NCBI GenBank assembly: GCA_002084875.1
Contig: NBMH01000001.1
Location: forward strand, 1-37,711
Source: Anaerolineaceae bacterium 4572_78
Lineage (GTDB): Bacteria > Chloroflexota > Anaerolineae > 4572-78
Direction of reading: 5' to 3'
DNA: 37,711 bases
The translations under genes were made by a program, and so were the position numbers. This document shows, piece after piece, positions 14,841 to 15,476 of this stretch (its first letter is position 1; each line of letters begins with the position of its first letter). The notes under the pieces were generated by a model. That model searched no databases. It had not been told where the DNA came from and saw nothing but the letters and a program-made list of their open reading frames with translations.

Positions 14841-15476
14841 ATGTTAAAATTTAGTGAATGCACTCTAGTTAAGCTAGATAAAACGTTTAGCTTAAATAGA
14901 ACATATAAAGATAAAACATTGCGAGATTGGATTGAAGGTAAATCCACAATCTCTGATATTGAACGACATGTTCTGAACATGTATCGTCAGGCTTTGGATA
15001 TACAGGGTTATGACTGGAATGAAGTCGAATTACGTCAACATTTCATCGGTCCCATGCTTGCTTTGGTCAACTTTTCTAGCCCACAGATTGGAATATTTTC
15101 TGAGAGGCGTTTTAGTGGGATAGTTGATGGCATTGAAATGAGTGGTGAACCTGACAGTATTATTTCTAGCGGTTTTCGTGAACCTGAAAAGCCTTATTTC
15201 TGTTTTCAGGAATATAAAAAAGAACGTGACCCCAAAGGCGACCCTGCTGGACAGGCTTTAGCTGCTATGCTAGTTGCACAAGAAATCAATGAGCATCGAC
15301 ACCCAATTTACGGCTGTTATGTACAAGGACGTGATTGGTCATTTATGGTTTTGCATGATAAGGAATATTGTATCAGCCGTCCTTATGTAGCTGTCCACGA
15401 TGATATTGTCGAAATATTTCGTATTTTGAAGGTGCTAAAACAAATCATCATTCGCTTGGTGGCGATAGATGATTAA
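14841..15476 (+). CDS. Hypothetical protein with a candidate PD-(D/E)xK nuclease-like motif arrangement; probable operon partner of the MVP-like gene 64 bp downstream
   Basis: It is a 211-aa ORF with a GAGG RBS. The motif order E (NEVELRQHF) ... G-E-P-D (IEMSGEPDSII) ... E-x-K (CFQEYKK) fits the restriction-endonuclease-like fold core. This is a visual call only. Confidence 0.5.
   Translation: MLKFSECTLVKLDKTFSLNRTYKDKTLRDWIEGKSTISDIERHVLNMYRQALDIQGYDWNEVELRQHFIGPMLALVNFSSPQIGIFSERRFSGIVDGIEMSGEPDSIISSGFREPEKPYFCFQEYKKERDPKGDPAGQALAAMLVAQEINEHRHPIYGCYVQGRDWSFMVLHDKEYCISRPYVAVHDDIVEIFRILKVLKQIIIRLVAIDD

Follow-up and report, generated by a model that had tools for sequence, protein, structure and literature searches.

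A multi-copy family of stand-alone PD-(D/E)xK-fold proteins, with one member beside an MVP-like gene in Anaerolineaceae bacterium 4572_78

Among the known systems closest to the protein considered here is the PD-(D/E)xK superfamily, in particular the nuclease domains with which Type IIG/IIL and Type I restriction enzymes begin. Proteins of this fold have also been noticed in the neighbourhood of CRISPR-cas loci: a survey of type III accessory genes lists a cluster 45 described as 'PD-DExK, possible nuclease' (Shah et al. 2019, PMC6546367), and minor PD-DExK families have been seen near such loci (PMC5704561). Bacterial homologues of the vault-shell protein MVP are likewise already described (bioRxiv 10.1101/872010; PMC3762200), with no gene-neighbourhood claim in the account consulted. 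The two subjects meet in a 37,711-nucleotide stretch of contig NBMH01000001.1 (the window, meaning the whole stretch analysed), from the metagenome-assembled genome (MAG) 'Anaerolineaceae bacterium 4572_78', where an open reading frame (ORF) of 211 codons lies directly upstream of an MVP-like gene. Its product is identical to that of locus B6242_00050, and that of the MVP-like neighbour to B6242_00055.

The reading we favour, at a probability of about 0.8 for the whole of it, is that the 211-residue protein is a stand-alone PD-(D/E)xK enzyme belonging to a multi-copy family, and that its adjacency to the vault-like gene is accidental.

Fold and active site

The sequence-only reading of this stretch took three short strings in the protein as an ordered set of acidic residues, PD and ExK compatible with the core of a restriction-endonuclease fold. 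The strings are where they should be: NEVELRQHF at N60-F68, GEPDSII at G102-I108 and FQEYKK at F122-K127. The bare pattern PD-x(10-30)-[DE]xK alone is not beyond chance, as it appears in ~10% of shuffles of the protein, and of 25 other ORFs in the window 2 have it, UvrC included. The motif is counted as real because its residues are conserved among homologues. In close homologues E61, E63, G102, D105, E124 and Q138 are invariant (35/35 each), and K126 is found in 34 of 35. Among 44 members at 29-50% identity, position 105 is D in 41 and E in the other 3; E124 is kept in 40, K126 in 43, E61 in 39 and Q138 in 40, while position 63 is acidic in all 44. A third sample, 96 copies from 85 other loci (~0.9 Mb in total), keeps each of E61, D105, E124, K126 and Q138 in 94-95 cases (94 for D105, E124 and K126; 95 for Q138). 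The D ... (D/E)xK motif on strands beta2 and beta3, together with the acidic residue of helix alpha1, is thus present at all three sampling depths, and strong purifying selection maintains the acidic/acidic/lysine constellation in virtually all paralogues.

The AlphaFold2 model made with the family alignment has a predicted local distance difference test score (pLDDT) of 94.2 and a predicted template modelling score (pTM) of 0.92. It consists of helices at 39-58 and 61-76, three short strands, strands at 106-110 and 118-124, a helix at 135-149, strands at 156-162, 165-172 and 175-178, and a final helix at 188-210. These elements make up a restriction-endonuclease-like alpha-beta-beta-beta-alpha-beta core, preceded by a helical N-terminal module of ~58 residues. 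In the model E61 and E63 open helix 61-76; D105 stands just before strand 106-110; E124 ends strand 118-124, with K126 two residues on. This predicted layout is textbook PD-(D/E)xK. The solved-structure neighbours of the model are PD-(D/E)xK proteins, the top matches being the animal mitoribosomal proteins mL37 and mL65 ('repurposed endonucleases'); a viral structure library also returns PD-(D/E)xK matches, weak and generic. The fold and catalytic-motif claim of the sequence-only reading therefore holds up, on structure prediction, two fold-search methods, a significant profile match and residues conserved in ~90-100% of homologues.

A family in many copies

The protein has 636 homologues in a collection of 5.8 billion proteins, and the family comprises 1,114 representative clusters at 50% identity; neither the homologues nor the clusters bear any name or Pfam domain. 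When the protein and 44 members are scanned against Pfam, NCBIfam and PHROGs, no family scores above threshold, and neither the protein nor the family profile finds anything meaningful among Protein Data Bank (PDB) sequences. PDDEXK_12 (PF20516) gives a sub-threshold match; it scores 19.3 bits against a gathering threshold of 27, over residues 150-201 only, and matches just one of the 44 members at any level. The PADLOC profile PDLC01472 ('PD_DExK', labelled as Cas-'associated') does recognize the family: it matches residues 65-199 of the protein over positions 7-139 of its 146 (E 1.8e-16, 58.3 bits) and all 44 diverse members (best E 2.3e-18). The family thus has a profile already, and its membership of the superfamily is no novelty; it lacks a Pfam model, though, and is uncharacterised. 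The practical outcome is an annotation for widespread 'hypothetical proteins' that lack such a model, as PD-(D/E)xK nucleases with an intact active site.

There is some variety of architecture. One subfamily (P0140, P0154, P0175, P0181, P0184 and P0235; 300-333 residues) has a conserved N-terminal extension of ~100 residues with the motif LSADEQ..L....LLQ....NFS, to which no Pfam family matches. Member P0201 bears a C-terminal helix-turn-helix (HTH) of Fis type.

A scan of one genome per species yielded 222 relatives, with 80 loci kept. The source genome has at least nine paralogues, 60-75% identical to the 211-residue protein and in unrelated contexts: five dispersed, counting the window copy, and four in tandem on another contig. 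Two Caldilinea MAGs carry at least 17 copies each; the median identity between pairs is 57-60%, and a single pair per genome exceeds 90%. Tandem arrays of four to five copies are known, among them L001 4543-7398 (loci are cited by such handles), and reach five in L018 (7326-10571). Filamentous or giant bacteria make up most of the hosts: Caldilinea, Anaerolineales, Desulfobacterales/Desulfococcaceae, Parabeggiatoa, Achromatium, Thiotrichaceae, cable bacteria, Moduliflexus/UASB14 and Spirulina; one Leptospiraceae MAG and one Gemmatimonadota MAG are added to these. Many such filamentous or giant bacteria are reputedly polyploid.

One way to understand this abundance is to see the gene as selfish, either a homing-type endonuclease that stands free or a nuclease carried by a small transposable cassette. 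The high copy number, the dispersed intergenic sites and the tandem arrays would suit such an element, as would hosts of filamentous or giant habit, in which homing could spread. The copies themselves make this very unlikely. Within a genome they are old, as the median identities above and the single pair above 90% in either Caldilinea genome indicate; the gene is not bracketed by inverted or direct repeats; tandem neighbours and orthologous loci aside, the flanks have no sequence in common; related genomes keep copies at orthologous positions (L005 and L013, for example, or L076 and L082); and no plasmid or phage homologues are found. What would mark a mobile or homing family, such as copies that are nearly identical, terminal repeats, ends that are conserved or a location on phages or plasmids, is absent from the loci compared. 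Because the paralogues are diverged, lack phage or plasmid homologues, bracketing repeats and conserved flanks, and have the GC content of their surroundings, they point to an old paralogous expansion, vertically maintained under purifying selection, and not to an active mobile element. That a genome should keep 10-20 intact, diverged nuclease paralogues is a puzzle resembling the one posed by Uma2.

The neighbours of the family do not supply a partner. They are diverse (an epimerase with an asparaginase, an aminotransferase with TrpA, a Piwi-domain gene and others), and clustering of the two ORFs on each side in 83 loci reveals no recurrent companion, the largest cluster spanning four loci. 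One such four-locus cluster, labelled 'UvrA', is a single-linkage artefact of ABC ATPases, true UvrA being present in L031 only. At that UASB14 locus (L031 4298-8636) family copies stand on both sides of uvrA, and the window copy is directly downstream of uvrC; two adjacencies to excision-repair genes among ~85 loci are too few for an association. In another assembly of the window organism (GCA_029935775.1; L001 4543-10085), four tandem copies are convergent with a 704-residue Piwi-domain (prokaryotic Argonaute) gene; ~570 nt separate its end from the nearest copy, the last of the four. This is a single case and may be chance. Nucleases associated with prokaryotic Argonautes are a known theme.

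A second perspective would make the family a type III CRISPR-Cas accessory nuclease. The match of the Cas-'associated' profile PDLC01472 to every one of the 44 members speaks for it, as do the minor PD-DExK families reported near CRISPR-cas loci (PMC6546367, PMC5704561). We think it very unlikely. No genuine array lies within 8 kb of the gene in 89 distinct loci, nor anywhere in the window, and no cas gene occurs in the Pfam-annotated contexts (L001, L002, L005 and the window; L010-L089 were not systematically scanned for Cas). With 10-20 copies per genome, occasional closeness to cas loci is in any case expected by chance. Five loci give array-like matches, all of them plain repeats (tandem or coding) that lack spacers. 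That in L011 (13281-13835), picked up by the k-mer screen, consists of eleven head-to-tail units of ~53 nt (CCCGAACCTTTTTA[AG]TTTTGCCCGGAATGACATG...) with no unique spacers; it mimics a CRISPR array and is in fact a plain tandem repeat.

The MVP-like neighbour

The arrangement that first drew attention to this locus is the nuclease-vault pair, put forward as a possible encapsulated or scaffolded nuclease activity to be checked by conservation of the neighbourhood. The features of the locus are collected in Table 1.

Table 1. Features of the 211-codon gene, its product and its immediate surroundings in the window
Feature	Position	Strand	Remark
uvrC	12753-14612		upstream of the 211-codon gene, which directly follows it
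Promoter-like site TTGACA-17-TATCAT	14752..14780	+	11/12 consensus positions; ~60 nt 5' of the ATG
CDS of the 211-residue stand-alone PD-(D/E)xK-fold protein	14841..15476	+	ATG start
E61-V62-E63 codons	15021..15029	+	acidic residues, N-terminus of core helix alpha1; putative metal-ligand position
G102-E103-P104-D105 codons	15144..15155	+	'PD' motif ahead of core strand beta2
E124-Y125-K126 codons	15210..15218	+	'(D/E)xK' motif, end of core strand beta3
Q138 codon	15252..15254	+	conserved polar residue, start of core helix alpha2 (135-149)
Spacer, nuclease gene to MVP-like gene, 63 nt	15477..15539	+	without terminator-like hairpin
MVP-like gene, 827 residues	15540..18023	+	Pfam MVP_shoulder E 1.8e-26, weak Vault_3 match
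Uma2-family gene with HTH_Rpn_C tail	18211-19110	+	downstream of the MVP-like gene

Conserved linkage, which the pairing would call for, is not seen, from either side, in any other genome examined. Starting from the nuclease, tblastn with the MVP-like protein finds no match near the 96 copies in the 85 other loci. Of these copies, 59 are followed by at least 3 kb of sequence, and 48 are flanked on both sides by that much or more. Its matches lie solely in L006-L009, which are re-assemblies of the window locus from the same organism; the adjacency is thus repeated in four assemblies, all of one organism and one locus. Starting from the shell protein, a hidden Markov model of the family finds no true member within 8 kb on either side of eight MVP-like orthologues in other genomes (L090-L097; 60-68% identical, on long contigs). 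Their loci have no synteny with the window or with each other. Desulfococcaceae HSG8 is a case in point: it has several family copies elsewhere in its genome and none at its MVP-like locus. The adjacency is lineage-specific and most simply incidental, since a genome with ~10-20 copies will, by chance, have some paralogue beside an eye-catching gene.

Stand-alone nuclease- or defence-like genes of other kinds do occur near MVP-like genes in several genomes: the Uma2 gene with the HTH_Rpn_C tail in the window, two DUF2887 genes in L091 (11111-13086), XisI, AIPR, a DNA methylase and HNH in L095 (10514-14787), and Uma2 in L097 (15736-16317). All of these types are very abundant in such genomes.

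Some points weigh against the favoured reading and belong together here. The nuclease and MVP-like genes are co-oriented and 63 nt apart with no terminator-like site between them, so that co-expression is possible. One MVP-like locus, L094, does have a relative of the nuclease 1.6 kb from the MVP-like gene; it is distant, truncated (148 residues) and on the opposite strand, scores 37 bits where a true member scores 276, and is separated from the MVP-like gene by a purM-like gene. As to the enzyme, the clustering of the five active-site residues in three dimensions was judged from secondary-structure positions alone; the nearest solved relatives, mL37 and mL65, are non-catalytic scaffold proteins; and whether a member acts on DNA or RNA, with what specificity and in what oligomeric state, is in every case inferred.

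The first of these points is what a third perspective builds on, which makes the nuclease a partner or cargo dedicated to the vault-like shell: the two would be co-expressed, and the shell would scaffold or encapsulate the enzyme. The common strand, the short gap, the promoter-like site 5' of the nuclease gene and the adjacency in four assemblies (one organism and locus though they are) are what it can draw upon. The distribution just described is hard on it from either end, and the MVP-like neighbourhoods are wholly unlike one another. Moreover, the source genome keeps its other paralogues in unrelated contexts, and compared with these the window copy has no extra domain or extension that could be used as a targeting signal. 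We consider such a partnership extremely unlikely; as a general arrangement it is largely refuted by these data. Were it true, an enzyme partnered with a prokaryotic vault shell would be the first functional handle on bacterial MVP homologues. A narrower version, in which one paralogue was captured into an MVP-like operon in this Anaerolineaceae lineage alone and works with the shell (as a sequestered or scaffolded nuclease, for example), has in its favour the co-orientation, the 63-nt gap and the want of a terminator; we give it only the slimmest of chances.

In the source organism, transcription through the 63-nt spacer into the MVP-like gene is possible. The strong promoter-like site suggests, as a consensus match only, that the 211-codon gene has a promoter of its own; such sites are no more numerous in the region than in shuffled sequence. 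One arm of a 14-nt inverted repeat (14773-14786 and 14835-14848; 93% complementary, arms 48 nt apart) overlaps the -10 hexamer of the promoter-like sequence, and the second arm overlaps the start codon. The repeat may serve as an operator, or it may be fortuitous, the DNA being AT-rich.

Two further ORFs of the window may be mentioned. One of 1,218 codons (8927-12583, reverse strand), divergent upstream of uvrC, has internal repeats and a signal-peptide-like hydrophobic start; no Pfam domain is listed for it in the precomputed tables. Another of 214 codons (19327-19971, forward strand), between the Uma2 gene and a solute-binding-protein gene, matches only itself among the 5.8 billion proteins, and AlphaFold, run on the single sequence, gives no usable model (pLDDT 39.7). 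This ORF may be a genuine orphan gene, or no gene.

A proposed enzyme and its relatives

That the family might be catalytically dead, a structural or nucleic-acid-binding protein keeping the endonuclease fold as mL37 and mL65 do, is suggested by its top structural matches. The catalytic residues make it highly improbable: 94-95 of 96 copies retain them, as do ~90-98% of members at 29-50% identity, a pattern for which a non-catalytic protein offers no easy explanation.

By analogy with PD-(D/E)xK enzymes, the protein is most likely a Mg2+-dependent DNA endonuclease. D105 and E124, with E63 or E61, would bind the divalent metal (Mg2+); K126 would position and activate the attacking water; and a phosphodiester bond of a nucleic acid, most likely DNA, would be cut. 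The fusion of P0201 to a Fis-type HTH fits a DNA substrate. The enzyme is probably a dimer, which is plausible because dimers are usual for the fold and because the nearest solved relatives, mL37 and mL65, form a pseudo-dimer together. The family is chromosomal, kept in many diverged copies per genome by mostly filamentous or giant bacteria and without a fixed partner gene; in this proposal the window copy upstream of the MVP-like gene would be a lineage-specific accident of paralogue placement, and not part of a functional module. As to role, our first guess would be a solitary endonuclease, restriction-like or policing DNA, favoured because the Uma2/DUF820 family is similarly expanded.

How does this family compare with those already known? 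The profile PDLC01472 matches it by sequence; the score of the 211-residue protein is moderate, and the profile spans the core and not the N-terminal module. With mL37 and mL65 (the latter also called mS30) the likeness is structural only: there is no match to PDCD9 (PF07147) at E<=1, and in a HMMER search of PDB sequences the family profile finds no mL37/mS30 chain at E<=10. These are eukaryotic ribosomal scaffold proteins of ~370-390 residues, against a bacterial protein of 211. The structural match, unexpectedly close, is nonetheless a testable lead on the kind of bacterial endonuclease from which those 'repurposed endonucleases' may have arisen.

Uma2/DUF820 (PF05685; TT1808, 1wdj; Ava_3926, 3ot2) is alike at the level of the fold and differs in the N-terminal module and the C-terminal helix. 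The 211-residue protein has no match to PF05685 at E<=1, and hhalign gives a probability of 0.2% for the family profile against the neighbouring Uma2 protein; it finds no relationship to the unannotated ORFs of ~210 codons at 19327-19971 and 24377-25012 either.

The restriction enzymes also belong among the closest known systems, in the N-terminal nuclease domains of BpuSI (3s1s), DrdV (7lo5) and HsdR (3h1t). Sequence similarity to these is undetectable. There the nuclease domain is one part of an assembly with methyltransferase, helicase or specificity modules; the 211-residue protein has none of these and stands alone, with a helical N-terminal module of ~58 residues that is its own.
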